From an uncultured bacterium (GTDB lineage Bacteria > Fermentibacterota > Fermentibacteria > Fermentibacterales > JCC-6), in the NCBI GenBank assembly GCA_964639605.1, contig CAZXEF010000001.1, positions 1-47,244 of the forward strand: a stretch of 47,244 nucleotides of DNA, in the 5' to 3' direction. Both the position numbers and the translations under genes were made by a program. Below are positions 1,290 through 47,244 of this stretch, one piece after another (within the stretch, counting starts at the first letter, position 1; each line of letters opens with the position of its first letter). The notes under the pieces are model-generated. The model was not told the origin of the DNA. It did no database searches and saw nothing but the letters and a program-made list of their open reading frames with translations.

Positions 1290-1936
1290 GCAAGGACCTA
1301 TATGAGACACTGGGGGTAGACAGGAAAGCTACCAAGGAGACTATTAAGGCAGCATACCGAAAGCGCGCGATGGACACGCATCCCGACCGTGGCGGGTCAG
1401 AGGATGAATTTGCGCTAGTGTCGAAGGCATACCGGGTTCTGAGCGACCCGAGCATGAGGGGGAGATATGACAAAGGGGAGCCAGTTGATGGCACTATCAG
1501 CAGGGAGAGCTTCCTTGAGCAAGAGGCAATGAATGTCTTGTTAGCTACTCTCAATGCCCTGATGAGTCAGTTTATTTCTAATCCAGACAGGTTTGACATT
1601 ATCGGGCAGGCCAAGAACGATATAATCGAGAAAAGGAGGAGATGCATTGACGATTCTGGAAAGGTCAGCAGAGACCTATCGAAGATCAAAAAGGCTATCA
1701 GTAAAGTCAAATACACTGGCAGCAGGATAAATGCTGTGGAAGTGATGGTAAATCGAAAGCTGGAAGCAGCAGAGAAAGTCCTCAGTGACTTGAAGGATCA
1801 GGAAGAAATTTTATTGCTGGCAAGGGATATAATCAAGGACTACAAATGGATCGGCGAAGGAAATAACTCGCTGGATTCATTTCTCGGGGCTGCAACATCC
1901 TCGGCTTGGAACGACTTTGCGGATGGAAGATGGTAG
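1286..1936 (+). CDS. J-domain (DnaJ-like) co-chaperone protein
   Basis: 'DLYETLGVDRKATKETIKAAYRKRAMDTHPDRGG..FALVSKAYRVLSDPSMRGRYD' is a canonical J domain with an HPD motif. The start ATG at 1286 overlaps the upstream stop. Confidence 0.85.
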   Translation: MSKDLYETLGVDRKATKETIKAAYRKRAMDTHPDRGGSEDEFALVSKAYRVLSDPSMRGRYDKGEPVDGTISRESFLEQEAMNVLLATLNALMSQFISNPDRFDIIGQAKNDIIEKRRRCIDDSGKVSRDLSKIKKAISKVKYTGSRINAVEVMVNRKLEAAEKVLSDLKDQEEILLLARDIIKDYKWIGEGNNSLDSFLGAATSSAWNDFADGRW

Positions 1937-4545
1937 GAAGGCCGTTAAATAAGAACTGCACTTTATGCAGGCTTAGCGAGACCAGAAACCTCGTGGTTGG
2001 GGGGCAAGGCCCTAAGAAATGTGCCATAATGATGATAGCCGAGGCCCCCGGCGAGTTTGAGGATAGACACGGGACCCCGTTCCATCCTTCGGCGGCGGGC
2101 GGGGCAGAACTTGATCACATCCTCAACATAAATTCTTGTCCGCGCGAGAATGTCTATCTCACGAATAGTATTAAATGCAGGCCTCCCGGAAACAGGAATC
2201 CGCGCAAGGACGAGATTGATGCTTGCTCAGCCTATCTGGACTATGAGATAGATAGAGTTGACCCGCAAATAATAGCCACTATCGGAGGTTTCAGCACGAG
2301 GCGGGTACTGGGCGACGTGGACATGGAGACTGTGCACGGCATTCCCTTCCAGAAAAATGGAAGAATAGTAGTTCCGCTATATCATGTGGCTGCAGGATTG
2401 CGCGACAACAAGACCATGCTCAACGTATATGCAGATTTTAAGAGTCTGTTCGGAATAATACGGCAGGAGCGCCCATCTCGGCATATAGAAGATCCGTTTG
2501 CGGGCAAGGAGAGATACATCCGATGCCGGACTGCGGGAGACGTGCTGAGCGCAGTGGGCAATAGGAGTACTATAGCGGTGGATGTTGAGTGGAATACCAA
2601 CAACAATGAGCTATGGTGTATAACTTTCTCTGTCGAGCCGGGAACTTCCAACATGATAATGAGGGAGGATACCGAGGCGATATGGGCGCTGGACATGTTC
2701 GTTTCTAGCCCCAATATTGTGTCCATTATACACAATACATTGTCAGACTTGGGGATACTGGAGTCTGTGGGGATTCATCCGGCGCGCCCCTTCGACACGA
2801 TGATAGTGGCGTACCTTCTGCAGAATGAGCCTCAGGGATTGAAACCCCTAGCTTTCAGGCACTGCGGAATGAAGATGGGATCGTATGCAGAAGCGGTCGC
2901 CCCGGCTACGTATTTCAAAGCAATAGACTACTTGCATAAGGTGGTAGAGCGGAAATGGCCCAAGCCGGACCCGGTTCTGGAGTTTGTTCAGGGGGTGCCA
3001 AAGAAGCGCCAGCCGCAGGATATAGGGCGCAAGACCAGTGGCATTCTGCGCGATATGGTTTCGCCCAAGAAAGGAGATATAGACCCTCGCAAGCGCTGGC
3101 TCAATTTCGATCCACGCGAGAGAAAGATGGTTGAGGATGAGCTGGGGGTGATGGAGGAAGGATTTCTCGGGGATATAGACCCGGAAGAGGCCAAAACTTA
3201 CGCCTGTTCCGATGCTGACGCTACTATCAGGATATACCCTATAATGAAGAGACGGATAGAAGCGGAGGAGATGGTCGGCACTTTCGAGCGCGACATGCGG
3301 GCTGTGCCCATGGTAGCGGACATGATGAAGTATGGAATCCTCACTAACCCGCAGCATTTTGTAGAGTTTGGCGCCTATCTGCAGTCCAAGGAAGACGAAC
3401 TGCAGTCTAGAATCAGCGCAGAGGCGGGATGGGATGTGAATCCGGGATCGCCCCTGCAGATGCAGAAACTGCTGTACGACCAACTGGATTTGCCGAGATA
3501 TAAGAAGACGGATACTGGCTGGAGCACGGACGAGAAAGTATTGGCGCGTCTGGCGGATAAGCACCCAATCGTGCAGATGGTTAGGGATTATCGATCCTAT
3601 AACAAGCTGAGAACCAGTTATGCCGAGGTTATACCCAAGGTAGTGGACAAGCACAACCGAGTTAGGTCCAATCTTCGCGTGACGCGGACGGATACAGGAC
3701 GATTGTCGTCCGGGGAACCAGTGAACTTGATGGCTCAGCCTGTCCGAAGCGAAGAGGGATTAAAGATAAAGCGCGGGTATATTGCATCGCCGGGGTGCCA
3801 CTTGGTGGAAATTGATTACAGTCAGGCAGACATGAGGTGCTGCGCTCACGGCAGCGGGGATGAAAGGATGCTTCATATCTTCAGGTCCGGACTGGATATC
3901 CATAGCCAGACCGCCTCGGCCATGTTCAAACTGCCGATTAATCAGCTTGACGAGATGAAACATCGATACCCGGCGAAAAGGGTCGGGTTCGGCGTGCTAA
4001 ACGACATCTCGGCCAAGGGATTGCAACGAGAGATGATAGTTGGCGGGGCAAAGGAGAAAGATTGGCCTCTGTGGCTGTGCCAAGACCTGATCAACAAGTG
4101 GTTTGAGACCTATTCCGGGGTAGCCCGGTTCGTTAACCGAACCCGCGCAGAGGCCCGTCGGTACGGTTATGTGACCGATATGTGGGGAAGAAGAAGGTAT
4201 ATTCCCGGCATACGATCTTCTAGCAGGAGTGCTGTAGCAGAGGCCGAGCGCCAAGCCACCAATGCCCCATTCCAGATGGGGACCGCCGGGATAACAAAGG
4301 AAGCTATGGGCCGACTCGTCCCGGTGTATAGAGGGTATATAGATGATGGATATGTCTGCTACCCACTAATCCAAGTACATGACTCGCTGCTATTTGAAAT
4401 TCAGGACGAGATACTGGATGAAGTGGTGCCGAGATTTATGGAGATAATGGAAGGAGTAGCCCCGTTTATGAAAGTTCCACTAAAGGTAGATGCTAAGATA
4501 GGACTAAATTGGGGGGAGACAGAAAAATGGAAATACGGAGGTTAA
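1930..4545 (+). CDS. Family-4 uracil-DNA glycosylase domain fused to family A DNA polymerase with 3'-5' exonuclease
   Basis: N-terminus: CxxC, 'AEAPGEFEDRHGTPF', 'KCRPPGNRNPRKDEIDAC' and 'YHVAAGLR', which are the UDG4 Fe-S type motifs. Exonuclease motifs: 'VDVEW', 'HNTLSDL', 'YACSDAD'. Polymerase motifs: A 'EIDYSQADMR', B 'RYPAKRVGFG', C 'QVHDS'. The start is taken at ATG 1930, overlapping the J-domain gene stop by 7 nt. Confidence 0.9.
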   Translation: MVGRPLNKNCTLCRLSETRNLVVGGQGPKKCAIMMIAEAPGEFEDRHGTPFHPSAAGGAELDHILNINSCPRENVYLTNSIKCRPPGNRNPRKDEIDACSAYLDYEIDRVDPQIIATIGGFSTRRVLGDVDMETVHGIPFQKNGRIVVPLYHVAAGLRDNKTMLNVYADFKSLFGIIRQERPSRHIEDPFAGKERYIRCRTAGDVLSAVGNRSTIAVDVEWNTNNNELWCITFSVEPGTSNMIMREDTEAIWALDMFVSSPNIVSIIHNTLSDLGILESVGIHPARPFDTMIVAYLLQNEPQGLKPLAFRHCGMKMGSYAEAVAPATYFKAIDYLHKVVERKWPKPDPVLEFVQGVPKKRQPQDIGRKTSGILRDMVSPKKGDIDPRKRWLNFDPRERKMVEDELGVMEEGFLGDIDPEEAKTYACSDADATIRIYPIMKRRIEAEEMVGTFERDMRAVPMVADMMKYGILTNPQHFVEFGAYLQSKEDELQSRISAEAGWDVNPGSPLQMQKLLYDQLDLPRYKKTDTGWSTDEKVLARLADKHPIVQMVRDYRSYNKLRTSYAEVIPKVVDKHNRVRSNLRVTRTDTGRLSSGEPVNLMAQPVRSEEGLKIKRGYIASPGCHLVEIDYSQADMRCCAHGSGDERMLHIFRSGLDIHSQTASAMFKLPINQLDEMKHRYPAKRVGFGVLNDISAKGLQREMIVGGAKEKDWPLWLCQDLINKWFETYSGVARFVNRTRAEARRYGYVTDMWGRRRYIPGIRSSSRSAVAEAERQATNAPFQMGTAGITKEAMGRLVPVYRGYIDDGYVCYPLIQVHDSLLFEIQDEILDEVVPRFMEIMEGVAPFMKVPLKVDAKIGLNWGETEKWKYGG

Positions 4546-5295: not shown

Positions 5296-5467
5296 CGCCG
5301 ATATGCACACTGTGTCTGACGCTTTCGAGATAGGGGAAGAATTGGAGTTGAAGGGTAAGGTTTTTGTGCTGCATGCTATACGCAAAAAACAAATAGTATT
5401 GAAACTAGCCCCATTACATAGACAACCAAACAACAAGGAGGAGCATTTTGAGGATAGGCAAATTTAA
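5285..5467 (+). CDS. hypothetical protein
   Basis: 60-aa ORF with a GGGGAGGAGGA RBS. Confidence 0.45.
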   Translation: MKNSADMHTVSDAFEIGEELELKGKVFVLHAIRKKQIVLKLAPLHRQPNNKEEHFEDRQI

Positions 5468-7004
5468 CATAGTCTGTGGTGCTCAGGCAGGCTCAGAGGC
5501 AAAGGGAAAATTCGCTGCGTTCTTGGCGGAGAAATACAGTAAAGAAATTCAGGCTATTGTCATGGCGGGATCTCCGAACGCGGGTCATACTGTGGTGGTG
5601 GACGGAAAGAAAACAGTTACATACCACCTTCCGGTCAGCGCAGTCGGATGCGACGCCCCGATATACTTGGGTCCTTCATCGCTAATTAACGCCGGGCTTC
5701 TCAGGAAGGAAATAGTAGACACCGGGATAGACCTAGAGAGAATAACCATAGACCCGAGAGCCGCAGTAATAACCGATGTACTGATCCGAGATGAGGAGCG
5801 GGCCGGTTTGTCGGATATAGGGTCCACGCTTCAGGGGATCGGCTCGACGCGGATTCTGAAGATGAAGAGAGATGGAACTATAACGCTGGCGCGTGACTGC
5901 GAAGAGCTTATCGATATGGGAGTGGTATCAGTAGAGCCAGTATCATTCTTCATCAATGATCTCCTAGATTCCAGAGAGACCGTGTTGTGCGAGATGACGC
6001 AGGGATTCGACCTAGACCTAGAGCACGGCATCGATCCAAGATATTGCTTTGCTAGAGGAACTAGGATACTTTTGGAAAATGGTAACTCAGTTCCAATAGA
6101 GGAGCTAGTTAGAGATAGAATACCCGCATCGGTCCTGTCCTACAACAGTACCACAGGTTTGCTTGAACCCAAAAAAGTGATAAACTGGTATAAAACTCCA
6201 CACGGGGGTGACTGGTATAGAGTTCACACAGATCTAGCCGTTGGGGATAAATCAGCTCCTAAGTGCACGGGGGGTCACAAGTATTATACCCAAAGGGGAA
6301 AAGTTGAGGCAAAAGATCTGATGGTAGGCGATCTATTGTACACAAACGAATATAGTTTAGAGGGGACCAACTGCCTTGCTACAGTGCGATGTACCGGAGT
6401 TGAAAAGCTGGCTCGCCTAGTATACGGCGTAAAATACAATATAGAGGTTGAGGATAATCATAACTACTTTGCGGGAAATCAGTTTGGGTACACTCTTGTT
6501 GGTAACTGTACAAGCAAGATGATCAATCCAGCCATGGCTATGGCCGAGGCCGGGGTCTCGCCCAAAATGGTGGGACACATCTATGGTGTGCTTAGGCCGT
6601 ACCCGATCCGGGTCAATAACCGGACTGGAAGCAGCGGGCCATATGCTGACGCAATCGAGCTGAAGTGGGAGAACGTGGCGAAGGGCTGCGGGCACCCCGA
6701 CCCGGACAATTTCGGTGAGATAACGACCACAACGAAACTGCCGAGGCGGGTATTCTCCTTCTCGTGGGAGAGATATGCTCATTTTATTCGGGTAGCGCGC
6801 CCAGACTTACTGTGTATGCAGTTCGCGAACTACCTGAATTGGGATGATTGCGGGAAGACCAACTGGTTCGATATGTCTGGGGCAGTCAGGGCTTTCGTAG
6901 AGACGCTGGAGAAACACGGCGGATGGGCGAGAGTGGCTTATGTCGGGACAGGGCCAGAGCACAAAGAGATGATTGATATGCGAGTGGACAGGGCAATTCT
7001 CTAA
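5448..7004 (+). CDS. purZ: Adenylosuccinate-synthetase family enzyme, PurZ-like, interrupted by an intein
   Basis: TTG start with an AAGGAGGAG RBS. The P-loop reads 'GAQAGSEAKGK' versus GDEGKGK in PurA, so Ser replaces the catalytic Asp. 'SPNAGHT' matches NAGHT, and 'QGFDLDLEHGIDPRY|..|CTSK' matches QG..LD.DHGTYPYVTS. The spliced length is about 364 aa. The family call is strong (~0.9). The PurZ versus PurA call is inference (~0.6). Confidence 0.65.
   Translation: MRIGKFNIVCGAQAGSEAKGKFAAFLAEKYSKEIQAIVMAGSPNAGHTVVVDGKKTVTYHLPVSAVGCDAPIYLGPSSLINAGLLRKEIVDTGIDLERITIDPRAAVITDVLIRDEERAGLSDIGSTLQGIGSTRILKMKRDGTITLARDCEELIDMGVVSVEPVSFFINDLLDSRETVLCEMTQGFDLDLEHGIDPRYCFARGTRILLENGNSVPIEELVRDRIPASVLSYNSTTGLLEPKKVINWYKTPHGGDWYRVHTDLAVGDKSAPKCTGGHKYYTQRGKVEAKDLMVGDLLYTNEYSLEGTNCLATVRCTGVEKLARLVYGVKYNIEVEDNHNYFAGNQFGYTLVGNCTSKMINPAMAMAEAGVSPKMVGHIYGVLRPYPIRVNNRTGSSGPYADAIELKWENVAKGCGHPDPDNFGEITTTTKLPRRVFSFSWERYAHFIRVARPDLLCMQFANYLNWDDCGKTNWFDMSGAVRAFVETLEKHGGWARVAYVGTGPEHKEMIDMRVDRAIL
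6045..6506 (+). mobile_element. Class-1 mini-intein (154 aa, no homing endonuclease domain) inside the PurZ-like gene
   Basis: Block A is 'CFARGTRILLENGNSVPIEELV', block B 'CTGGHKYYT', block F 'YNIEVEDNHNYFAG', and block G 'TLVGN' followed by the +1 Cys. Removing it restores the conserved 'HGIDPRY-CTSKMINPA' core of the PurA family. Confidence 0.85.
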
Positions 7005-7010: not shown

Positions 7011-7039
7011 TTGGCAAGGAGCGCCCGACGTGGTATAAT
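7011..7039 (+). promoter_or_regulatory. sigma70-type promoter with extended -10
   Basis: TTGGCA (7011-7016), a 17-nt spacer, then TGgTATAAT (TATAAT at 7034-7039). It sits in the gap after the PurZ-like stop. Confidence 0.6.
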
Positions 7040-7145
7040 GAAATTTTGGTGGGGGGCGGTCCCCTGCCTTGCCTTGGGTGAAGGCAGCATTCCCGGACTG
7101 AGTGGCGGGAGTGCTGCCCAAATTATGACAATAGGGAGGAAACGA

Positions 7146-7928
7146 ATGGAGGATAAACTAGTAGCCGACCCCAGTAACATCGGCATGGGAGTAACTGTAT
7201 ACAATAGATATCTGTTTGCCGTTCCTGTCAAGGGGATAATAACTAATACAAACGATGCTCTAAGCTGTTATCAGGTAATTTTTTGGACAGATAATCCCGG
7301 AGGAAAGAATGTCAATAAGCACGATGGAGAATACTTCTTCGTCAGAGAATGTATTGTCGGCAGAGATCTCCGTGGAGCAGGGGCAACTGAGTATATAGAG
7401 AAAAGAATGAAGAAGCTGGTGGGTATATGGAAAGCCAAAGGGCTGAACGGACTACAAGCCGAGCGCTGGATTACAAAAGAACCTGATAAGACTAAGGAAG
7501 CAATGATGGTCAGGGTAGAGTGCGGAGCTTGTGGCTGGGCGATTGAGCGGCCAGTAGAGGAACACGCAAATCATCCGTTTATAGCATGCCCGTCCTGTGG
7601 GAACTCTGATATCAAGGAAACATTTCGTGCGGACAAAGAGTGGGATAGCCACGAACGGGACAGTCTTCAATCACTGCGTCCATACCGGTTCGATCTGATC
7701 GACCCCAAGGCTATGCTATGTCTGGCGGGTATCATGCACGACGGATTAAAGGACCATGAACCTGATGGCTGGCGGGAACTTCCGATAGAGGATCACCTCA
7801 ATCACGCCGTGGGCCACATAACAGCCTACCGGGCCGGGAACCGGGAGCTTGACCACTTGGGCAGGGCCTTTGCCCGGTTGATGATGGCTGTGGCCGAGGA
7901 GAAGGAAGATGGGACGGAAAATGGATAA
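7146..7928 (+). CDS. Two-domain protein: Zn-ribbon-containing N-domain plus DUF5664 / dATP-dGTP diphosphohydrolase-like (MazZ-like) C-domain
   Basis: ATG 7146 has an AGGGAGGA RBS. 'CGACGW..(21)..CPSCGN' looks like a zinc ribbon. The C-terminus 'RPYRFDLIDPKAMLCLAGIMHDGLKDHEPDGWRELP..HLNHAVGHITAYRAGN..LDHLGRAFARLMM' fits the PR(F/W)DLIP...A..RH..A...G...HL pattern I recall for that family. Confidence 0.55.
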   Translation: MEDKLVADPSNIGMGVTVYNRYLFAVPVKGIITNTNDALSCYQVIFWTDNPGGKNVNKHDGEYFFVRECIVGRDLRGAGATEYIEKRMKKLVGIWKAKGLNGLQAERWITKEPDKTKEAMMVRVECGACGWAIERPVEEHANHPFIACPSCGNSDIKETFRADKEWDSHERDSLQSLRPYRFDLIDPKAMLCLAGIMHDGLKDHEPDGWRELPIEDHLNHAVGHITAYRAGNRELDHLGRAFARLMMAVAEEKEDGTENG

Positions 7929-8437: not shown

Positions 8438-8848
8438 GTGACAAAGAAAAAAGCATCACTCAAACCCACAGTCCAGTGGGACGAAAAGACTATGACGGAA
8501 GTGGCTGTCAAGAAGGGGTTCAAGGATTTCGAGGCCGACCTGCTCAAGGGAATACAGCTCCGGGCCAAGGTCAAGGCCCTCAAGGGCGAGGTTGAGGGGT
8601 TGGAGGATCAGGCGAAAGCCCTGCTGGAGCCTGCGTTCACATTGCTGAAGACAACCCGGATAGGCACTAACGGGCTGGGCGTCCTGTCGTGGAGGAACGG
8701 ATCTTCCCCCGCGCGGGTTGATGGGGTGAAGGTGATAGAGAATCTGGTAACTGCAGGCGTAGACCCGACCGTGGCGCGCAAGGCAGTTGATGACGCCACG
8801 ACTCCCGGCACTCCGTATAAGTATTTTCAATTGACCAATAAAGGATAG
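8438..8848 (+). CDS. hypothetical protein
   Basis: GTG start with an AAGGAGGA RBS 6 nt upstream. 136 aa with a coiled-coil-like centre. Confidence 0.6.
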   Translation: MTKKKASLKPTVQWDEKTMTEVAVKKGFKDFEADLLKGIQLRAKVKALKGEVEGLEDQAKALLEPAFTLLKTTRIGTNGLGVLSWRNGSSPARVDGVKVIENLVTAGVDPTVARKAVDDATTPGTPYKYFQLTNKG

Positions 8849-8860
8849 GGGGAAAAGATT

Positions 8861-9748
8861 ATGAAATGTTTTTATCACTCAGCGGACTTGGACGGTCATT
8901 GTTCTGGAGCAATAATTAAAATGGCATTTCCTGAATGCGATATGATAGGGATCAATTATGGAGACGAATTTCCATGGGACGATATAGGGCCTGATGAATT
9001 AATCTTTATGGTTGATTTTTCCATTCAACCTTTTGAAGGAATGTTGAGGTTAAATCAATCCTGTGGAACGTTGATCTGGATAGATCACCACATATCAGCG
9101 ATTAAAGAATCTGAAGTTTACGGAAATAAATTCTATGGATTACAAAGGGATGGTATAGGAGCCTGTGCCTTAACATGGGAATATACATGGGAATATCTTA
9201 AATCCCTGGGGCATTTTTACACTGAAGATTTTCAAAATATTTCATCCGAAAGTGATCTCCCCACTTTTATAAAGCTTCTCGCTGAGTATGACGTGTGGAA
9301 CCATTCCGACCCAAGAACTCTTTCGTTCCAATACGGGATGAGACAGCAGCCCAATACATGGCCGGATAATCAGGATTTTTGGAACTCCTTATTTGATGTG
9401 GAAGAGGTCCAGAGAATTACCGAAATTGGCGGAACAATACTAAAATATCAATTAGCCGAAAATGAAAAATACTGTTCTGCCTGCGCCTTCGAAACAGAGC
9501 TGGATGGTCTGAAATGTATCGCAATCAATAAGATGCTCACCAACTCGCAGCTATTTAATTCTGTTTGGGACAGCCAAAAATATGATGCCATGCTTACTTT
9601 TGGGTGGCGTAAGGGAAAATGGACAGTATCCCTATATTCCGACAGGGATGATATTGATGTTTCGTCAGTGGCGAAGAAACATGGTGGGGGTGGGCATAAG
9701 GGGGCAGCCGGGTTTCAGTGCGAGTATTTACCATTCAATCTGACTTAG
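8861..9748 (+). CDS. DHH/DHHA1-family phosphoesterase (NrnA/RecJ-like fold)
   Basis: Motifs 'HSADLDGHCS', 'MVDFS', 'WIDHHIS' and the C-terminal 'HGGGGHKGAAGF'. The gene is visibly more AT-rich than its neighbours. Confidence 0.8.
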   Translation: MKCFYHSADLDGHCSGAIIKMAFPECDMIGINYGDEFPWDDIGPDELIFMVDFSIQPFEGMLRLNQSCGTLIWIDHHISAIKESEVYGNKFYGLQRDGIGACALTWEYTWEYLKSLGHFYTEDFQNISSESDLPTFIKLLAEYDVWNHSDPRTLSFQYGMRQQPNTWPDNQDFWNSLFDVEEVQRITEIGGTILKYQLAENEKYCSACAFETELDGLKCIAINKMLTNSQLFNSVWDSQKYDAMLTFGWRKGKWTVSLYSDRDDIDVSSVAKKHGGGGHKGAAGFQCEYLPFNLT

Positions 9749-11893: not shown

Positions 11894-12268
11894 TCATTCT
11901 TCTAGCTCTACCTCCAACAGTCCCTGCAGGAACATCAGTTCCTTGTTGGCCAGTTCCCGGCACTCTCCGCACTCGGCCCAGTAAGGAATAGCACGCCCGT
12001 GAGCACATACCTGATGGTCTCTCCATTCTTCCCACGGCGATCCTACGCATCCTTCCATGCCGGTATACTCAAACACAGGACATCGATTCTTCCGACTATT
12101 AGCCCCGCAGTCCCAGCCATAGTGCTGGCATAGTTCGCAGTCCCAGCTACAGTGCTGGCACAGTTCGCAATTATCCGACATATTATCACAGCCCAGCCCA
12201 ACAGCAATCTTACTCCATTTCTGTACGGACAGCCGCAATAACTCTATCCTTTCTTTCCTCGATGTCAT
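11894..12268 (-). CDS. Cys-rich (metal-binding-like) hypothetical protein
   Basis: 124 aa with a GGGAGGA RBS and an ATGA overlap with the upstream gene. It contains the duplicated 'CELCQH(C/Y)(S/G)WDC' unit. Confidence 0.65.
   Translation of the reverse strand: MTSRKERIELLRLSVQKWSKIAVGLGCDNMSDNCELCQHCSWDCELCQHYGWDCGANSRKNRCPVFEYTGMEGCVGSPWEEWRDHQVCAHGRAIPYWAECGECRELANKELMFLQGLLEVELEE
12107..12166 (-). repeat. 30-bp tandem duplication inside the Cys-rich gene
   Basis: 12107-12136 and 12137-12166 match at 27 of 30 positions (gcagtcccagcYaYagtgctggcaYagttc). The two copies encode the two CELCQHxxWD units. Confidence 0.85.
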
Positions 12269-12513
12269 TCCTCCCTCGCTTTCTGCAGACGCTTCTCTGC
12301 CTTAATACGGTTCCTTTCCATCTGCCGACGTCGGCGCTCCTTCTCCTTGTTTCCCTGATGGTGCACGCGCGCAACCACTTTAACCTTGGGCGCGGGTGCT
12401 GGCCTCGGCTCAATGTCTGGCCGGATTATCGGGACAGTGGTTAGCCCCATCCTCAGCGCCTCGCCCATGTTGCGCACCACCAAAATCCTTCCGCTCTTCT
12501 CTCTGTCATCCAT
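12265..12513 (-). CDS. hypothetical protein with a basic C-terminus
   Basis: 82 aa with an AGGAGG RBS 9 nt upstream. It is the first gene after sigma54 promoter A. Confidence 0.6.
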   Translation of the reverse strand: MDDREKSGRILVVRNMGEALRMGLTTVPIIRPDIEPRPAPAPKVKVVARVHHQGNKEKERRRRQMERNRIKAEKRLQKAREE

Positions 12514-12539: not shown

Positions 12540-12556
12540 ATGCAAGTTCCGTGCCA
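12540..12556 (-). promoter_or_regulatory. sigma54 (-24/-12) promoter A
   Basis: The minus strand reads TGGCACGGAACTTGCAT, an exact match to TGGCAC-N5-TTGCW. It is intergenic, and the predicted +1 near 12530 is about 17 nt before the ATG at 12513. Confidence 0.75.
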
Positions 12557-12569: not shown

Positions 12570-12598
12570 CGAAGGCCCGCGTCGGACGGGCACCTTCG
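12570..12598. repeat. conserved GC-rich hairpin, copy A
   Basis: cgaaggcccgcgtcggacgggcaccttcg. It shares the CCCG(C)GTCSGACG(C)GGG core with copies at 13944, 15272, 16425 and 16530. Confidence 0.6.
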
Positions 12599-12627: not shown

Positions 12628-12667
12628 TGTGGTTCCCTTGCCACATTGGTGTGGTTCCGGTACCACA
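12628..12667. promoter_or_regulatory. paired 18-bp palindromes, enhancer/UAS candidate for promoter A
   Basis: TGTGGTTCCCTTGCCACA (12628-12645) and TGTGGTTCCGGTACCACA (12650-12667), with centres 22 bp apart. Confidence 0.6.
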
Positions 12668-12671
12668 TATC

Positions 12672-13292
12672 TCATCCACAAAAGGTTCCTATATAAACAC
12701 CGTCGTGAATTCCCGGCCAAGACAGCATTGGAATACGCGGTGCGCTCTCATCCACTTCAAAATTTCCACAAAAATATTCAGTGGCTGTACACCCGAACAT
12801 TTCCCCTATGTATATGACTGGGCCTCCCCAATGCCTGCATGCAGCCTCGAAGGAAGGATTGTCATACGGGGGCCACGATGCCAGCAGTATGTCTGCCCAA
12901 TCCCCGAACCTTCTAACTGCCTTGATAGCAGATGCTCTTTCTACTTCATGCACCAGTTTCATACGGTTGTGCTTCCAGCTAGATTCGAAATTGTCAGTGG
13001 CCTTTATATTAACCCCAAATTCGGACAGGGCCTTAGCAATCCAGCCCCGGCCCGCCATAATTTCAAGAACTCGTTTTCCGCCGATAAATTCTGATAGCAC
13101 CTTGGTCCAGTTCAGATCGACTATGCACCATGCTCCTAGATCATTAGCTTTATAGCGATACTTCATGTTATCCGAATAATGGCTAATTCTCCCTCCCCAA
13201 GTAGCGATCTCCGGCGGAAGCGGGGGAACTACACCAAGCCTCAAGTGGGCCACGTATTTACGATCACTTATCCTATTTATTCCATCCTTCAT
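12672..13292 (-). CDS. class I SAM-dependent methyltransferase (substrate unknown, possibly DNA)
   Basis: 'KRVLEIMAGRGWIAKALSEFG' looks like SAM-binding motif I. The later 'LLASWPPYDN' loosely resembles the (D/N/S)PP(Y/F) motif IV. Confidence 0.6.
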   Translation of the reverse strand: MKDGINRISDRKYVAHLRLGVVPPLPPEIATWGGRISHYSDNMKYRYKANDLGAWCIVDLNWTKVLSEFIGGKRVLEIMAGRGWIAKALSEFGVNIKATDNFESSWKHNRMKLVHEVERASAIKAVRRFGDWADILLASWPPYDNPSFEAACRHWGGPVIYIGEMFGCTATEYFCGNFEVDESAPRIPMLSWPGIHDGVYIGTFCG

Positions 13293-13488
13293 TTATGGCT
13301 ATCTCCCTTGTTACATTGAAATCGTTGTCGCATTCACGCCCGGCCCGGAAGTCCTCTTCGGTGATATAACTGTCGCACTCACCTTCGGCCTTCAAGTCCT
13401 CGACATCGAAGTCCAGTTCGGTCCCGATCGTCCACATGTTTACCAGAACTCCATCCTCGTCCGTCAGTATCAGTTTGTACCGTGCCAT
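13273..13488 (-). CDS. hypothetical acidic protein
   Basis: Start trimmed to MARYKLIL (ATG 13488) behind an AGGAGAG RBS, 10 nt after the upstream stop. Confidence 0.55.
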   Translation of the reverse strand: MARYKLILTDEDGVLVNMWTIGTELDFDVEDLKAEGECDSYITEEDFRAGRECDNDFNVTREIAINEGWNK

Positions 13489-13498
13489 AACATCTCTC

Positions 13499-13927
13499 CT
13501 ATTCCAGCACCTCGACTGCCTCGAAGGCCACAACACTGGGTTTAATCGCGTAAACACCGGGACTGCTGCCCTTGTAAATTTCGCCGTCGGAATTATAGTC
13601 AAGGTAGAGTCTATCTATTGAAGCATTGACCCGCCAGAAAATCGCTGGACTGTAAGTCGGGGAGCCTACTCCTCGAACCGACACTATCTTAGCCATGTCG
13701 TCTAACCTGTACTGCCCAATGAAATGCTCGGCAGCGTTCGTGTCGACGAAACAGAGAATGCCCACCGAATCCGGAACAGCCTTCACTATTTTTCCCTTAG
13801 GATAGCGCGGGTAATACCGAATAATTTCGCGGGCAATACTGCGCCTGTCAATCTTTCTGTTCCTCGTCTGTATTAGCCAGTTGCTACAGTCCCTTTTCTT
13901 CTTCCCTACTACCTTGTATGCTATCAC
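13499..13927 (-). CDS. hypothetical protein
   Basis: GTG start at 13927 with an AAGGAG RBS. 142 aa. Confidence 0.55.
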   Translation of the reverse strand: MIAYKVVGKKKRDCSNWLIQTRNRKIDRRSIAREIIRYYPRYPKGKIVKAVPDSVGILCFVDTNAAEHFIGQYRLDDMAKIVSVRGVGSPTYSPAIFWRVNASIDRLYLDYNSDGEIYKGSSPGVYAIKPSVVAFEAVEVLE

Positions 13928-13943
13928 TTGTTAATCTCCTTTC

Positions 13944-13966
13944 GAGGCCCGCGTCCGACGGACCTC
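13944..13966. repeat. conserved GC-rich hairpin, copy D (intercistronic)
   Basis: gaggcccgcgtccgacggacctc forms an 8-bp stem with a 7-nt loop. It lies exactly between the stop at 13967 and the next RBS. Confidence 0.6.
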
Positions 13967-14167
13967 TCATTCTGCGCTTACAGTGCTTACGTGCCAGCAA
14001 TACACCTCGTCATAATTACAAGCGTCATAGGATTCAGGCCCGTGCTTCGAAATCACTCTCCGCTTGTCCTCTCCCTGCAATTCGCGCTGTTTAGTATAGG
14101 CCTTGGCCAGATCGTCTAATACTACTGCCTTAGGCTCATTGTTACAAAATATGATGTGTGCTTTCAT
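13967..14167 (-). CDS. hypothetical protein
   Basis: 66 aa with an ATGA overlap with the upstream gene. Confidence 0.55.
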   Translation of the reverse strand: MKAHIIFCNNEPKAVVLDDLAKAYTKQRELQGEDKRRVISKHGPESYDACNYDEVYCWHVSTVSAE

Positions 14168-14835
14168 CGCTCATCCCCCTTCCCTACCCTGTCTATAAGC
14201 CTACTTGATAGTGATGCAATGTCCTGCATCCTGATGTTCGGTGAGTTTCTTTCTGAGACAGTAGCTAGCTTATTGATCTTGTGCAATCCTGTCAGCAAGT
14301 CGTTGGTAAACATTTCTCCTGTCTCCCTTTCTGCCATGGAATAGGGTGCAAGGTTTCCGTCTTCCTCAAACTCAAACTCATTGACCCTGATCGTCTCGAT
14401 TACGGCTTCACGGCTCAGTAGATATTCCCACTCACCCTTTAGCATGTAGAAATAGCATCGGTTAATGGCTCGCAAAAACTCTACATCGATGTCGCTAAAA
14501 TCAGGGTCCTCGTCTGTGGGTGTTTCACCCTTCCGCGCCGTATACCTCTCCTTGAAGAGCAATGCTGTTTTGTAGGTCTCTGTTTCCTTGCCATGCTCCG
14601 CGAGTATAGCATCAACAGTGTCAATACCTGACTTCACAAAATTGGCATACAGCGTGAACCTGTTAAGGTCAAACTCGTCGATTATAAGGTGGATATTCTT
14701 AGCGTCCTCATACACTGTGTCCCACCATCCATGCCCGATGTTGATGTATGAATGATCGCGGATTGCCTCTTCCTGCGCGTCCTCGGTGAGGTCGTCGAAA
14801 TTATAAAGTGTCTTTGTTATAGTAATCATCCTCAT
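14164..14835 (-). CDS. hypothetical, strongly acidic protein
   Basis: 223 aa with a TAAAGGAGGAAAA RBS. It is D/E-rich throughout. Confidence 0.65.
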   Translation of the reverse strand: MRMITITKTLYNFDDLTEDAQEEAIRDHSYINIGHGWWDTVYEDAKNIHLIIDEFDLNRFTLYANFVKSGIDTVDAILAEHGKETETYKTALLFKERYTARKGETPTDEDPDFSDIDVEFLRAINRCYFYMLKGEWEYLLSREAVIETIRVNEFEFEEDGNLAPYSMAERETGEMFTNDLLTGLHKINKLATVSERNSPNIRMQDIASLSSRLIDRVGKGDER

Positions 14836-14998
14836 AGTTTTCCTCCTTTACTGGACTGGTAATTCTGTCTAGTGAACGTTTATCGTGCCAAACGTAGTCC
14901 CTGCACCTGTCGCACCAATACCACGCTCCGGGTCCAGTGCTGTGGTCAAGAAACGCTTGGCATCCACAATGGGGGCATTGAATGCTAGCGCATATCAC
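14801..14998 (-). CDS. small Zn-ribbon protein
   Basis: GTG start. 'CPHCGC...(17)...CDRCRDY' provides two CxxC pairs. Confidence 0.55.
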   Translation of the reverse strand: MICASIQCPHCGCQAFLDHSTGPGAWYWCDRCRDYVWHDKRSLDRITSPVKEENYEDDYYNKDTL

Positions 14999-15128
14999 GG
15001 TTTCTCCCCCTTTCCCGGCACCTCTGGATGTTCCGCTTGGTGATTCTCTCGAAATTGCAGAACACTAAGACTAGCGCAATCAGCGCCAGCAGGTCCATTC
15101 CGATAAATGCAAACAACAGTGATTTCAT
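14985..15128 (-). CDS. 47-aa single-pass membrane protein
   Basis: MKSLLFAFIGMDLLALIALVLVFCNFERITKRNIQRCRERGRNRDMR with an AAGGAGG RBS 7 nt upstream. It is below the ORF-track cut-off and I found it by reading the strand. Confidence 0.5.
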   Translation of the reverse strand: MKSLLFAFIGMDLLALIALVLVFCNFERITKRNIQRCRERGRNRDMR

Positions 15129-15187
15129 GGCGTCACCTCCTTAATAGTACGTCGAGAGTGGCCGGGCTTTCCCCGGCCTGTCGACAT
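15125..15187 (-). CDS. possible 20-aa leader peptide, translationally coupled
   Basis: MSTGRGKPGHSRRTIKEVTP with a GGGAGGA RBS. Its TGA overlaps the ATG of the membrane-protein gene (ATGA). The ORF spans a GGCCGGG-GAAA-GCCCGGCC hairpin. Confidence 0.25.
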   Translation of the reverse strand: MSTGRGKPGHSRRTIKEVTP

Positions 15188-15242
15188 GACATCCTCCCGA
15201 ACATGGGTTGATATTGGGCCATCGGCCCTATACCTAAAAGAA

Positions 15243-15259
15243 ATGCAAGGCGCGTGCCA
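15243..15259 (-). promoter_or_regulatory. sigma54 (-24/-12) promoter B
   Basis: The minus strand reads TGGCACGCGCCTTGCAT. It has the same downstream context as copy A (TTGCATTTCTTTTAGGTA). Intergenic. Confidence 0.75.
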
Positions 15260-15271
15260 CAACGGATTAAA

Positions 15272-15302
15272 GCGAAGACCCGCGTCCGTCGCGGGCTTTC
15301 GC
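15272..15302. repeat. conserved GC-rich hairpin, copy B
   Basis: gcgaagacccgcgtccgtcgcgggctttcgc forms a stem of about 13 bp. It lies between the UAS pair and promoter B, as in copy A. Confidence 0.6.
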
Positions 15303-15329
15303 CTCTTCAGTTACCGTTTGTGCTATGAT

Positions 15330-15370
15330 TGTGGTTCTCCCGCCACATCCGGTGTGGTCCCCTCGCCACA
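15330..15370. promoter_or_regulatory. paired 18-bp palindromes, enhancer/UAS candidate for promoter B
   Basis: TGTGGTTCTCCCGCCACA (15330-15347) and TGTGGTCCCCTCGCCACA (15353-15370), with centres 23 bp apart. Confidence 0.6.
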
Positions 15371-15437
15371 TCCCTGCTTGGGCCATGGTTTCTTCCTGTG
15401 GTCCGGTTTCGGCCCCGGACCCCGGCCCTTGATTGGT

Positions 15438-16313
15438 TTAGTGGAAAAGTCTCCTGACGCGCCCCATCATCCTCTGCTGGACTACCTGATTCTCGATCCG
15501 GTGCGTGATGAACTGGGTAACGATGTTGTAGAAAGCCCACAAGGTTATCGCCTGCAGTTTCTGGTCCTCAAGCCGGACCCCGGATGAGACCTCGACCTCG
15601 CGGTGAAGGTCCTCGGTCTGTGTCTTGTTGAGCTTGAGTCCGGTGACGATGTTCTCGTATTCGGCTAGTGTGGTCACCCGGTCAACCCACTTTTCCCAGA
15701 TGCCAACCTGATCACTGAATCGCTTCATCCCGACGATGATCATTGCTTTCATGTCGTGGGTGCCATCCATCGGCTGGTGATGTTCGCGACGGTATTCGAT
15801 CTCCTTCGTGCCGACCGTCATCCCATTACTGCATATTATCCGGTATGCCCCGAAGATCGCCCGGAGCGCGATCGATCCATCAAGGCTATTGAAAGCATCA
15901 AAGCTTGGTGCGATTCCGCGCCCGCCGTCGGTGTCTCCCGCGACGGTCATTGCCGCCTCCGGGAATGTGTACTGCAGTCTCATTTTCGCACCGTCCTGCG
16001 GGAGCCATACCCGGCGTTCCGGCTTGCCGTATTCGGTCATTTCGTCCACGACGCTTTCGGCCATTTCGATCACCTGCTCGTGTCGGATGAGCTGGTAATC
16101 GTCGGTGACGATACTGAAGACTTCCTCGGTCTCCGGGTTGATCAGAGCCTTCTGGCCCTTGATTTCGATCCGGCGCCTGCTGGTGTCATCCCCGAAGTAG
16201 ACCGGACGCTCTTCGACCTTCGGAATTGCCTTCAGGGCAGACTCGACGCTCATTCCGCGCCCGGCCACCTTGCCTGTCATCCTTGCTTCTGTTGCTAATG
16301 CGTTTGCTGTCAT
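15438..16313 (-). CDS. DUF932-family protein
   Basis: Start trimmed to MTANALATE (ATG 16313) behind an AAGGAGGAAAC RBS. 'LRAIFGAYRIICSNGMTVG' resembles the R..C.NG core of DUF932. Confidence 0.6.
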   Translation of the reverse strand: MTANALATEARMTGKVAGRGMSVESALKAIPKVEERPVYFGDDTSRRRIEIKGQKALINPETEEVFSIVTDDYQLIRHEQVIEMAESVVDEMTEYGKPERRVWLPQDGAKMRLQYTFPEAAMTVAGDTDGGRGIAPSFDAFNSLDGSIALRAIFGAYRIICSNGMTVGTKEIEYRREHHQPMDGTHDMKAMIIVGMKRFSDQVGIWEKWVDRVTTLAEYENIVTGLKLNKTQTEDLHREVEVSSGVRLEDQKLQAITLWAFYNIVTQFITHRIENQVVQQRMMGRVRRLFH

Positions 16314-16384
16314 GTCGTTTCCTCCTTGCTGGCCGGGTTCAGGCCCGGCGCCCCGAGTGGCACCCCGCCACCCACCTTTAAAAA

Positions 16385-16401
16385 ATGCAAGCCTCGTGCC
16401 A
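16385..16401 (-). promoter_or_regulatory. sigma54 (-24/-12) promoter C
   Basis: The minus strand reads TGGCACGAGGCTTGCAT. The predicted +1 near 16375 is about 62 nt before the ATG at 16313. Confidence 0.75.
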
Positions 16402-16475
16402 GCCCGAACGGACGTTCGGTATATCCGTCGGACGCGGGCCTTGGGCGCTGGGTCCGGGTTCGACAATTCCTCAAT

Positions 16476-16511
16476 TGTGGTTCCGGGACCACAATGTGGC
16501 GAGGAGACACA
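16476..16511. promoter_or_regulatory. paired palindromes, enhancer/UAS candidate for promoter C
   Basis: TGTGGTTCCGGGACCACA (16476-16493, arms extend to ATTGTGGT/ACCACAAT) and the degenerate TGTGGCGAGGAGACACA (16495-16511). Confidence 0.55.
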
Positions 16512-16529: not shown

Positions 16530-16555
16530 GAAAGCCCCGTCGGACGCGGGCCTTC
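16530..16555. repeat. conserved GC-rich hairpin, copy C2 (a related core, C1, lies at 16425-16440)
   Basis: gaaagccccgtcggacgcgggccttc has the same core in inverted orientation relative to copies A and D. Confidence 0.5.
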
Positions 16556-16635
16556 GCTGGTACCCAAATGGCAAGTGGGTTATGACCTTCGGGAGAGTGT
16601 GGTCCCGGCGCTACAGTGGGGGTATGGAGATGGTG

Positions 16636-16670
16636 TACAAAGGGTGTAAGTGGGATATACAAAGGGTGTA
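16636..16670 (+). promoter_or_regulatory. two 13-bp direct repeats (operator candidate) upstream of the rightward late block
   Basis: TACAAAGGGTGTA occurs at 16636-16648 and 16658-16670, a 22-bp period. Each overlaps a TGTACA half-palindrome. Confidence 0.45.
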
Positions 16671-28082: not shown

Positions 28083-28961
28083 ATGACATACAGAAATTCC
28101 TACGATATGTTGGGGGATCTCAGACATAACCTCAACGAGTATAGCACAGCGCTGCACCAAGGGACCTCCACCAGCGGGAAATACGATAATGGGTGGCTGA
28201 TGCGGGAAGGGATCAATATAGCTCAGGCGGAATTGTATGAAATGCTGGTGCTGGTAATGCGAGAGCACTTTCTGGAGGGTCCTGAGGACATAGCTGTCAC
28301 AAGCTCTGTCATAACGCTGCCATCCGATTTCGGGGAGCTTGAGGAACTGAGGGACGGAAATGGCGCCAAGGTATACAGGTCGGGAGTAAAAAATCTCCCG
28401 GCCAACGGAAGCGATGGCTCTAAGCGGGCATACTACCGCAAGGGAAATACCTTGGTGCTCAACAGAAGTGGAATTACTGATACTTATTCAATAGCATATA
28501 TAAGAAAGCCTAGGGATCTGGATCAGGGGGCCGCCTCTTCTGGAAATACCCTAGCCACTACTGCTGTTCCAGTCGACGACTACTATAACGGGATGTATAT
28601 CGAGAGCATTACTGGAAGCTGGGCAGGCGAGATAAGCGACTATACAGCAGGAAGAGTTATAACTGTCAGCGGACAGACCCTGACCAGCGGACACTACTAT
28701 GGAATAATAAGCGATCTGCCATATGAGTTCCACAAGCACATCGTCCCTAGGGCAACAATACTATGCAAGGCGGCTCATCCATCCTCGCAGGAGAAACCCA
28801 GTGCGGGGGACGTGCAATTATGGAGCAAAAGCGTCGCTGACACATTTCGGGCATTTGCCGGAAATAAAGCGGATGTGGACCCAGAGAGTATATGGTGCGA
28901 TAGTGATAGAGCACTATCCGGTGGGTTCAGTATTCCCGGACACAGTAACTTGGTTTGGTAA
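28083..28961 (+). CDS. virion structural protein (position fits an adaptor / tail-tubular-A-like role)
   Basis: 292 aa, immediately before an ~820-aa gene, as in podovirus tail modules. Positional inference only. Confidence 0.45.
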   Translation: MTYRNSYDMLGDLRHNLNEYSTALHQGTSTSGKYDNGWLMREGINIAQAELYEMLVLVMREHFLEGPEDIAVTSSVITLPSDFGELEELRDGNGAKVYRSGVKNLPANGSDGSKRAYYRKGNTLVLNRSGITDTYSIAYIRKPRDLDQGAASSGNTLATTAVPVDDYYNGMYIESITGSWAGEISDYTAGRVITVSGQTLTSGHYYGIISDLPYEFHKHIVPRATILCKAAHPSSQEKPSAGDVQLWSKSVADTFRAFAGNKADVDPESIWCDSDRALSGGFSIPGHSNLVW

Positions 28962-31600: not shown

Positions 31601-33728
31601 TTACGGCAGAAGGCCTTCAGTAATCGGGGACGAGGGAGACTATCACGAGATGATGAAGACCCCGCCCAGAAAGGCTCTGCTTGACCAGCGCTTGGAGCCT
31701 AAGAGCCAGTTTGACAAGCCATATCTGCAGGATGACTATGCCGAGATGGAATACGAACAGCCAGCTCCTCCGGGCCTTACCAGCGTATCCACCCCTGATC
31801 TTGACTGGCCAGAGGTCCCAAGCTCTCCGGTCCCGGATCTACCTCCTCCGGGAGAAGGAGGAAAACTGTGCGGTCTGGTGTGCTTCTCGCCTCTGTATTG
31901 CGACGATCCTGTGGAATGTCATATAGCAGTGATTCAGGGCTACACGACTGAGGATATATATACTCATCCGGGACTATTCCACGCGACGATAAACGGTGCC
32001 CCAGTCAATATAAAAATTGAGGGAGGGATTCGCCCAATAAAAATATACCCACCCGCAATCAGAAGTCCAAGGTGCTGGGGAGTTTACCCGGACGACCCAA
32101 AGGACCTCGTGTCTCTGAGAATAATAGGAAAGGACAAGAGTGGTAATATAATATTATCATGCGAGGAAAATATTGACGTGTTCTGCCAGCCGGGGAACAA
32201 ATGCGGGTGTAACTGCGAAGATCTCCCCGAAGGGGCATTTGCCTTCGACGCTGATAGTACTACGGATACAATAGGACCCAATAGTTCAACAACTATTTAT
32301 TTTACTGGAGGTTGTCCTCCTTATAAATTCTTTATACCCTATGCTTTAGGATATTATTTTGATGTCAATCATACCATAACAGAATTAACTATTACAGATC
32401 CTTATTCGGAGGATAATAACTCTATTAATCTTTTTTGTTTGGATGGAGTTGCAGAGGTAAATTTTGATTGTGAAGCTCTTGTTACAGGTTTAGACAAATG
32501 TTCAGGATACAGTGACTACCCTGCCTGGAAAAGTGGAGTAAATTATACTGGTGGAAAAACGGTGGTATATGATGATCGTTATGAATGTTTGGAAGATCAT
32601 ACCTCATCAGGCAATTTTTATGAGGATTATGACGCTGGATATTGGTTTAAAAATACTTTTGGTGACGACTTCGTAAAGACTATAACTATATATAATACAG
32701 CTTGTTGTTGTGATGATCTGCCTTTTGGTGCATTGGAATTTGATAATGATTCTACACCTGATACCGTAGTAGCTGGAAGTTCTATAGATATTTATGTAAC
32801 AGGTGGATGTGGTCCGTTTGTATTCTCTACTGATAGCGTAGGATATAGCTTTCCAAGCCACAACTATTCTTCGTGGGCAACAGAAACAGATTACGTTTAT
32901 GAAGACGTTGTAGAACCTCCAACTTATCTGGATTGGACTACCAGTACATTATATGAAGTAGGAGATACGGTATCTAATTCCGGTGTATATGTGTGTTTAG
33001 TAGAGCATACATCAGGTGATTTTGAGGATGATGTAACCTCCGGATATTGGTATTCGTATGGAGTACTTGCTCCATATTACATCTGTATTGGAGATCATAC
33101 TTCTACAGATTTCATAGATGACATTGAAGCATGGTATCCTTTACAGGAAAATGATCATTGGACGTTAGATAGAGTTGATACGTTATCTTGCGATACAGGT
33201 GTTTGCGGAGATCCAGGAGGATATGCAGCAAATGCTTTAGTTTCGATAAAGGACATTTGTGATACAGTAGTTACAGCTAATATAAGAAATACTTCAGGTC
33301 ACTGGGATTTCTTCATTGGATCAAGTAATAGTCCTGATCCAATAAGGGCATCGGGATATGTTTACATCGATAACATGAGAGTTTATATAGGTTGGGGAGA
33401 AGGTGGCACAATACCAGTTAATGCTAATTCATGTGCTCAAGAATACCCGGTTCCACTAACTTCTTTGTTTTCTCCTTCATTAACTGGTCCTGGATATCTT
33501 CCCCAAGAGATGGTGAACCATAGCAATAATCCCGATAGAACTTGGGAGGAATATGCTACTTGGCTGGGAGAACAGGGAGACATTGTAGCAGCAGGACTTG
33601 TTCTTGATTGGTGTAGATGGGCTGGAACCTCTATTTGCTATTTTATGTTCCAAGATAATCCTTGTACTGTCGGTAATTCAAATAAACGATTGGCAAGATC
33701 ATGGTCTGTATATGAGTGGGTATGCTAA
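31569..33728 (+). CDS. tail fibre / receptor-binding protein with CBM5/12-like carbohydrate-binding repeats
   Basis: 'YPAWKSGVNYTGGKTVVYDDRYECLEDHTS', 'LDWTTSTLYEVGDTVSNSGVYVCLVEHTS' and 'YYICIGDHTS' follow the W..g..Y..Gd.V...g..Y.c...H.s pattern. The module CxC(E/D)DLP.GA..FD.DST.DT......I..TGGC.P..F is duplicated. The start could instead be a downstream Met near 31647. Confidence 0.6.
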   Translation: MAKPKNPIVRNYGRRPSVIGDEGDYHEMMKTPPRKALLDQRLEPKSQFDKPYLQDDYAEMEYEQPAPPGLTSVSTPDLDWPEVPSSPVPDLPPPGEGGKLCGLVCFSPLYCDDPVECHIAVIQGYTTEDIYTHPGLFHATINGAPVNIKIEGGIRPIKIYPPAIRSPRCWGVYPDDPKDLVSLRIIGKDKSGNIILSCEENIDVFCQPGNKCGCNCEDLPEGAFAFDADSTTDTIGPNSSTTIYFTGGCPPYKFFIPYALGYYFDVNHTITELTITDPYSEDNNSINLFCLDGVAEVNFDCEALVTGLDKCSGYSDYPAWKSGVNYTGGKTVVYDDRYECLEDHTSSGNFYEDYDAGYWFKNTFGDDFVKTITIYNTACCCDDLPFGALEFDNDSTPDTVVAGSSIDIYVTGGCGPFVFSTDSVGYSFPSHNYSSWATETDYVYEDVVEPPTYLDWTTSTLYEVGDTVSNSGVYVCLVEHTSGDFEDDVTSGYWYSYGVLAPYYICIGDHTSTDFIDDIEAWYPLQENDHWTLDRVDTLSCDTGVCGDPGGYAANALVSIKDICDTVVTANIRNTSGHWDFFIGSSNSPDPIRASGYVYIDNMRVYIGWGEGGTIPVNANSCAQEYPVPLTSLFSPSLTGPGYLPQEMVNHSNNPDRTWEEYATWLGEQGDIVAAGLVLDWCRWAGTSICYFMFQDNPCTVGNSNKRLARSWSVYEWVC

Positions 33729-45319: not shown

Positions 45320-45321
45320 CT

Positions 45322-47243: not shown

Positions 47244-47244
47244 A

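Follow-up and report, generated by a model that had tools for sequence, protein, structure and literature searches.

The DNA analysed here (the window) is a stretch of 47,244 nt from an assembly assigned to an uncultured bacterium (GCA_964639605.1, contig CAZXEF010000001.1). It is a section of a 63,987-bp Logan contig (SRR8557488_119715) that, taken whole, looks like a complete phage genome of ~64 kb with a G+C content of 50%. The plus strand carries a replication module and, beginning at the small terminase gene at position 16709, a packaging and structural module. The sole leftward arm, at ~9.8-16.3 kb, is made up of small genes, almost none of which can be assigned to a family. Our subject is a set of paired palindromes upstream of three predicted sigma-54 (RpoN) promoters in this arm, which we read as probable binding sites for a bacterial enhancer-binding protein (bEBP) of the host.

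The promoter element, a perfect TGGCAC-N5-TTGCA, occurs three times, always on the minus strand and always fitting the longer form TGGCACG-N4-CTTGCA; it is absent from the remainder of the ~64-kb genome, both inside the window and outside it. P1 (TGGCACGGAACTTGCA, 12541-12556) is followed by an 82-aa gene (12265-12513) with its ATG 43 nt away from the T of TGGCAC. P2 (TGGCACGCGCCTTGCA, 15244-15259) precedes a 20-codon open reading frame (ORF; 15125-15187), then a 47-aa membrane protein gene (14985-15128) and further genes to ~13273, while the gene next to P3 (TGGCACGAGGCTTGCA, 16386-16401) encodes a DUF932 protein (15438-16313). The three elements combine the -24 GG and -12 GC of sigma-54-type promoters at the exact spacing with a co-oriented gene start 43-88 nt downstream and with conservation in relatives, and their predicted role as sigma-54 promoters driving the leftward arm is supported. 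Such promoters need an activated ATPase, an ATP-driven activator, to fire. Between 9.5 and 18.5 kb, sigma-70-like promoters and terminators were not predicted above shuffle level.

Upstream of each promoter lie two adjacent palindromes of the form TGTGGT-N6-RCCACA (more broadly TGTGG(T/C)-N6-(A/G)CCACA, with arms TGTGG-N8-CCACA). All distances given here run from the palindrome centre to the T of TGGCAC. At P1 the proximal palindrome (TGTGGTTCCCTTGCCACA, 12628-12645) is centred at 80.5 bp and the distal one (TGTGGTTCCGGTACCACA, 12650-12667) at 102.5 bp; at P2 the corresponding sites (TGTGGTTCTCCCGCCACA, 15330-15347, and TGTGGTCCCCTCGCCACA, 15353-15370) are at 79.5 and 102.5 bp; and at P3 a proximal palindrome at 83.5 bp (TGTGGTTCCGGGACCACA, 16476-16493) is accompanied by a degenerate 17-mer at 102 bp (TGTGGCGAGGAGACACA, 16495-16511). 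The original prediction, made from the window sequence, had listed these six sites as five exact and one degenerate, with distal centres at about 102-103 bp and proximal centres at about 80-84 bp, and both coordinates and distances proved correct. A seventh site with one mismatch, absent from that list, lies 205.5 bp from P3 (TGTGGTCCCGGCGCTACA, 16598-16615).

The five exact and two near sites all fall 60-210 bp upstream of P1-P3. With up to one mismatch allowed, the two strands of the window together give 11 matches; the number expected from shuffles is 0.24, and none of 100 shuffles reached 11. A motif search of the whole phage had been proposed as a check on the association, and it finds the palindromes only upstream of the three sigma-54 promoters, with none elsewhere, whether inside the window or beyond it in the ~64-kb genome. 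The motif is asymmetric, its extended half (G-R-A-CCACA) facing the promoter.

If transcription starts ~26 nt past the T of TGGCAC, the sites sit at roughly -106 and -128. Enhancer sites are expected as dyads some 70-200 bp upstream of the promoter; the window sites are found at 79.5-102.5 and 205.5 bp, and those of relatives at 59.5-103.5 bp. Within the window phage and its closest relatives (L134 and L005), paired sites are 19-23 bp apart. A fixed distance between palindromes and promoter had also been claimed, and this holds within the present genome and fails across relatives. Even within the genome it owes something to duplication: the P1 and P2 cassettes are paralogous (76% identical over 86 nt), so their equal spacing is partly inherited and does not count as independent evidence. 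The P3 cassette is more diverged and has several linker indels, with distances nearly equal to those of P1 and P2.

What relatives preserve is the face of the helix. Proximal distances fall into three classes, ~59.5-60.5 bp (L005, L151, L166, L155, L126), ~69.5-70.5 bp (the L134a cassette, the L146 group and four chromosomal loci of Acidobacteriota described below) and ~79.5-83.5 bp (P1-P3 and the L134b cassette), and because the shifts come in steps of ~10-11 bp (59.5, 70.5, 80.5), the helical face is kept. For the eleven sites of the window clade within 104 bp of a promoter, distances modulo 10.5 are 6-10, and a Rayleigh test with a 10.5-bp period gives p ~0.001, a value that overstates the significance since the sites are not fully independent. 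The cleanest case comes from a second, unrelated phage lineage in IMG/VR, where one variant (59.5/79.5) and another (70.5/90.5) are offset by exactly 11 bp. Whole-turn shifts fit what would be predicted if a bound activator makes a looping contact with promoter-bound polymerase.

The conservation footprint was examined in related phages. A terminase search leads to a large family of uncultivated phages of ~60-68 kb; by megablast, GenBank phages include no close relative, and identity of the terminase to anything there does not exceed 32%. One relative, L134, comes from a different sample and has a large terminase 81% identical to that of the window phage, while its leftward-arm proteins are just 37-59% identical. 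It has two leftward sigma-54 promoters, each with a TGTGG-N8-CCACA pair, at 70.5/93.5 bp (L134a) and 81.5/103.5 bp (L134b). L005, whose DUF932 protein is 61% identical, has the promoter and one exact palindrome at 59.5 bp, together with a degenerate distal pair ~151 and ~171 bp upstream. In an alignment of six cassettes from the three phages, the invariant positions are the arms of the proximal palindrome, TGGCACG and CTTGCA, in addition to a few columns in a GC-rich element and two in the distal site; the N4 promoter spacer, the palindrome spacers and the linkers diverge. Because the arms never co-vary while the spacers vary, the pattern points to sequence-specific recognition by a protein and not to RNA pairing. 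The candidate recognition motif put forward in the original prediction is borne out in this respect, its TGTGG/CCACA arms being invariant in L134 and L005.

A metagenome scan for the palindrome-hairpin-promoter pattern recovered the strain variant L130 as its single real relative, and five further matches were judged to be chance. L130 differs from the P2 site region at four positions, all outside the arms, although four differences are too few to weigh heavily. It also has ~180 bp extra separating the P2 enhancer from the DUF932 gene (L130 528-708, JGI sample 3300031364) and is otherwise 96-99% identical. Cassette-specific DNA patterns and the DUF932 protein had no match in IMG/VR. Two distant family members (L135, L137) have neither the palindrome nor the promoter element, so the enhancer system belongs to a sub-clade.

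The module is found outside this phage family as well. A scan of IMG/VR for the pair pattern identified the unrelated lineage mentioned above (terminase ~25% identical, G+C 0.41-0.43), in which TGTGGT-N6-ACCACA pairs 20 bp apart precede TGG(T/C)AT-N5-YTTGCA. Beyond the ~25%-identical terminase, the two lineages have no protein in common in the loci compared, small proteins included. Bacterial chromosomes were scanned with a loose pair pattern in one genome per species, and the figures that follow hold among the matches listed. At least four loci (L080, L095, L097, L105) belong to Acidobacteriota, two of them in metagenome-assembled genomes (MAGs) of Vicinamibacterales and two in unclassified members. 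Their module consists of GTGTGG-N8-CCACA, a spacer of N4-5 and TGTGG-N6-RACCACA, followed after ~52 nt by the sigma-54-like promoter element GG-N10-TGC; the pair centres are 69.5/92.5 bp from GG-N10-TGC, and the whole aligns without gaps with the phage cassette L134a. In contrast to the phage cassettes, these loci are cellular, high in G+C and equipped with a weaker -24 element (GGCAT or GGCGT). They are intergenic, with cellular genes on the flanks, and lie upstream of genes for secreted fn3/beta-propeller proteins. A similar layout of pair and promoter was seen in one Myxococcales MAG and one Desulfobaccales MAG. The presence of pair and promoter in loci of these three groups suggests that a cellular protein reads the motif.

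The remaining chromosomal matches are mostly unrelated, for example pairs of DnaA boxes, operators of actinobacteria and repeated sequences in gut MAGs. Downstream genes (fn3/beta-propeller proteins in Acidobacteriota, YeaQ/ElaB-like membrane proteins in Myxococcales) were uninformative as to the function of a regulon, and bEBP genes adjoining pairs in L030, L075, L076 and L121 were dropped as candidates when no common pattern emerged.

The phage itself does not appear to supply the activator. Pfam scans and precomputed annotations of the phage proteins contain no sigma-54 activator (Sigma54_activat, AAA+) domain, and its six-frame translations contain neither a GAFTGA motif nor a Walker A of the bEBP type. 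None of these three signatures was found in the sequences examined from the other phages, those of the unrelated lineage included. Because no activator gene was found in the phage, the activator is probably borrowed from the host. We infer that the paired palindromes are upstream activating sequences (UASs) for a dimer-binding bEBP, that the host encodes this protein and that it acts by looping, and we put the probability of this reading at roughly 0.7. The suggestion that these are bEBP sites was already part of the original prediction, and it now has the support of the exclusive association with promoters, the conservation footprint, the spacing, the cellular counterpart and the failure to find a phage-encoded activator.

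A plausible mechanism would run as follows. Host sigma-54 RNA polymerase would wait in a closed complex on TGGCACG-N4-CTTGCA, while NtrC-type activator dimers would occupy the two TGTGG-N8-CCACA sites, about two helical turns apart and on one face of the DNA. The dimers would assemble into an active AAA+ ring, contact the polymerase through a loop across the GC-rich linker of ~50-70 bp, and open the promoter with energy from ATP. In this way the three cassettes would drive the leftward small-gene arm (~9.8-16.3 kb), and an implication of that arrangement is that expression of the arm would be tied to whatever signal activates the host protein.

The nearest parallels are the classical enhancers of NtrC at glnAp2 and DctD at dctA, where tandem dyad sites of 17-18 bp lie on one helical face, ~80-140 bp upstream of TGGCAC-N5-TTGCA, and act through looping and ATP-driven opening. 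The layout of paired dyads is alike, with the phage sites at -106/-128 from the presumed start. The sequence differs, the NtrC site being TGCACC-N5-GGTGCA and the phage site TGTGG-N8-CCACA, and unlike those systems the sites are borne by a phage in which no activator gene was found. The UAS of NifA, TGT-N10-ACA, is located ~100 bp upstream and depends on the face of the helix; it resembles the phage sites in its outer TGT...ACA dyad, its face dependence and its position, and departs from them in spacing, since the phage sites read TGT-N12-ACA (N11 in degenerate 17-mers) and have arms of five bases. In the open-access literature searched, we found no phage-borne enhancer for a host activator, and a search for the motif returned primer matches only. 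The phage case that did emerge is Pseudomonas phage YuA, which has no RNA polymerase of its own and is reported to use weakly defined, sigma-54-type '-24/-12' promoters (cited in PMC10914365; annotated in NC_010116), for which no enhancer has been reported. The YuA terminase is distantly related to that of the present family (~30% identity), and the YuA promoter fragments in NC_010116 contain no canonical TGGCAC-N5-TTGC and no TGTG-N10-CACA.

Several observations weigh against a host bEBP as the reader of these sites. The case for one is built on sequence evidence. To our knowledge the motif matches no UAS, those of NtrC, NifA and others being different. The linkers are GC-rich (29-46% A+T) and contain no site resembling that of integration host factor (WATCAA-N4-TTR); such a site or an intrinsic bend is frequent at bEBP enhancers though not essential, and its lack is a further departure from the NtrC and DctD systems. 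The chromosomal scan is noisy, and no bEBP gene was found within 8 kb of the Acidobacteriota sites. The phage G+C of 50% is well below the values of Vicinamibacterales. This mismatch, together with the scope of the chromosomal scan, makes the connection a weak one, so Acidobacteriota as phage host is offered as a lead only. Lastly, a group of temperate P. aeruginosa phages (L148 group) has the same pair, TGTGGTAAGAACGCCACA and TGTGGTAGAAACGCCACA separated by TTGGA, with the same arm sequence and a spacing of 23 bp, in a lambda-like early region where no sigma-54 promoter was found within 220 bp. The palindrome motif alone is therefore not diagnostic of bEBP binding.

An alternative for which the L148-group pairs speak is that the palindromes are operators for a phage-encoded regulator, whether repressor, anti-activator or timing switch, with the promoters fired by a host activator that acts from solution or is recruited. 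Phage repressors, too, typically have operators made of tandem 18-bp palindromes spaced by 20-23 bp, and a small DNA-binding protein could hide among the unassigned products of the leftward arm. However, the sites are 60-130 bp upstream, clear of the promoter, and a distance quantised in helical turns is expected for looping and not for simple occlusion. The module also stands beside cellular genes in Acidobacteriota chromosomes, and it is present in two phage lineages that share just a 25%-identical terminase in the loci compared. Phage operators are improbable on these grounds. A different protein could be involved without being the ATPase: a dimeric host co-regulator, CRP/FNR-like or of another helix-turn-helix type, might bind the palindromes, the true activator binding elsewhere or lacking a DNA-binding domain. 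TGTG-N10-CACA does resemble the CRP-type site TGTGA-N6-TCACA with a spacer 2 bp longer, CRP acts on sigma-54 promoters from upstream sites, and known bEBP motifs do not match. Yet the fifth base is G and not A, and the pentamers are 8 bp apart, a half-site spacing unlike that of CRP. Moreover, the palindromes and the -24/-12 element are the main conserved upstream elements, the sole other one, the GC-rich repeat, occurring also where there is no promoter; and the tandem placement of sites at -85 to -130, separated by two turns, fits the nucleation of a ring by bEBP dimers. A co-regulator of this kind seems to us quite improbable.

It could also be supposed that the palindromes act as RNA, forming terminator, processing or stabilising hairpins at the ends of upstream units and lying near promoters only incidentally. 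Each can fold as a 6-bp stem, and the distal P1 site begins 5 nt past the stop codon that ends the 206-aa gene upstream. The predicted fold energies are nevertheless ordinary (z = -1.5 to -1.8), no U-tract follows, no Rfam family matches, and the arms are invariant across diverged phages with no compensatory changes. P3 and L134a have no co-oriented gene upstream, and the chromosomal counterparts are intergenic and upstream of promoters. We regard an RNA function as highly improbable, and a DNA enhancer read by a host bEBP is the explanation we favour.

Between sites and promoter, six of the seven cassettes contain an inverted repeat that is GC-rich and whose core is CCGTC(C/G)GACGCGGGCC. At P1 it lies at 12570-12598 on the minus strand (core CCGTCCGACGCGGGCC). 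Of all the copies, the one at P2 (15269-15305, minus strand) has the strongest predicted hairpin (-24.4 kcal/mol, z = -4.7) and was flagged as terminator-like. At P3 a 16-mer (CCGTCGGACGCGGGCC, 16425-16440) is in inverted orientation, on the plus strand, with weak predicted pairing, and a further plus-strand copy of CCGTCGGACGCGGGCC (16537-16552) separates the P3 pair from the far site (16598-16615). Another copy (13944-13966, minus strand) occupies an ordinary intercistronic gap with neither promoter nor palindrome, and two more are in plus-strand operons outside the window (L003 2316 and 5661). The repeat is therefore not specific to the cassettes, and its role as part of the enhancer was not supported. 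Three window copies are identical over 16 nt. The stem flanks vary from copy to copy, and copies with the same 16-mer fold well or poorly; orientation follows local transcription, P3 excepted. The repeat could be a terminator or insulator ending the upstream unit or, equally, a protein site. In the unrelated phage lineage (L146, L151, L156, L158, L159, L166), a different inverted repeat, GTGACAAAATTTGTCAC, is found between the pair and the sigma-54-like promoter, in a placement that parallels that of the GC-rich repeat in the window.

Other sigma-54-type elements were noted in the family. L134 has a third perfect promoter (7255-7270, plus strand), antisense into the gene at 7273-7575, with the GC-rich repeat just upstream; no palindrome was found there. 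In L138 (160-175; also in L139; terminase 66% identical, G+C 0.62), TTGGCATGGTAATTGCA is located 22 nt before the start of a plus-strand gene, which implies that sigma-54-type promoters recur in several branches of the family. L140 (terminase 62% identical) contains 14 co-oriented YTGGCAYG-N4-YTTGCA 16-mers within 500 bp on the minus strand (8483-8981; also L141 4811-5309), just upstream of the small terminase gene, with three more at 7880, 7810 and 5633. The array spacers are not conserved, Tandem Repeats Finder detects no tandem repeat, and at the upstream end are two everted TACCACAgTGTRGTA elements. The 16-mers may act either as an array of promoters or as a sigma-54 polymerase decoy.

With respect to the surrounding genome, the plus-strand replication module comprises DnaJ, a family-A DNA polymerase fused to uracil-DNA glycosylase (1906-4545), an adenylosuccinate-synthetase (PurZ-like) gene interrupted by an intein (5448-7004) and a dATP/dGTP diphosphohydrolase gene (PF18909, MazZ-like; 7011-7928), all by domain annotation. 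This PurZ-like and PF18909 gene set, the same pair being present in L134, is typical of 2-aminoadenine phages, and the family probably replaces adenine by 2-aminoadenine, in which case the enhancer and promoters would be read on modified DNA. The phage helicase gene also has an intein (L002 18804-21185, outside the window), giving at least two inteins in the genome. Rfam and tRNA scans gave no match. Within the P1 operon, a Cys-rich 124-aa gene includes a 30-nt tandem duplication (12106-12165, 90% identical). From the P3 enhancer to the small terminase gene there is a direct repeat, TACAAAGGGTGTA, in two copies 22 bp apart (16636-16648 and 16658-16670), and L134 has five or six CTGGATACCCC-like repeats in the matching position; these repeats could be a late-promoter or packaging element. 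The structural module is podovirus-like and includes an SU10-type adaptor (28083-28961) and a 2359-aa ORF with no Pfam match (36136-43215). Two stretches of low G+C (32001-34000 and 45001-47244; 0.36-0.41 versus 0.50) hold a 719-aa protein containing CBM_5_12 and, at 45-47 kb, a sulfotransferase-like gene with its neighbours; the genes in both may be recently exchanged host-recognition genes.

The kind of element and its mechanism are classical. What is new is the phage setting without an activator gene, the recurrence in unrelated phages and the recognition motif. A wider interpretation would join these points: unrelated uncultivated phages would have in common the same cellular enhancer, present as copies (the TGTGG-N8-CCACA pair, phase-locked at ~60/70/80 bp) and would cede their accessory-gene arm to a single widespread signal-transducing ATPase of the host, so that the motif would serve as an Acidobacteriota-like host marker. 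The L140 array suggests, as part of the same interpretation, that these phages also manipulate the sigma-54 polymerase of the host or titrate it. We offer this wider interpretation tentatively and consider it unlikely as a whole; were it true, ATP-driven opening might help to transcribe Z:T DNA, which is harder to melt.

Finally, phage genes placed behind sigma-54 promoters, in a phage without an activator of its own, would be conditional on the signalling state of the host. A virus that reads host physiology through promoters dependent on host signalling is a poorly documented situation. The result is a precise and testable recognition motif for the candidate activator, and it suggests that a regulatory motif may offer a way to assign a host to a family of uncultivated phages. 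Should the genome truly be 2-aminoadenine DNA, these cassettes would also provide a natural case of enhancer binding, looping and promoter melting on modified DNA.

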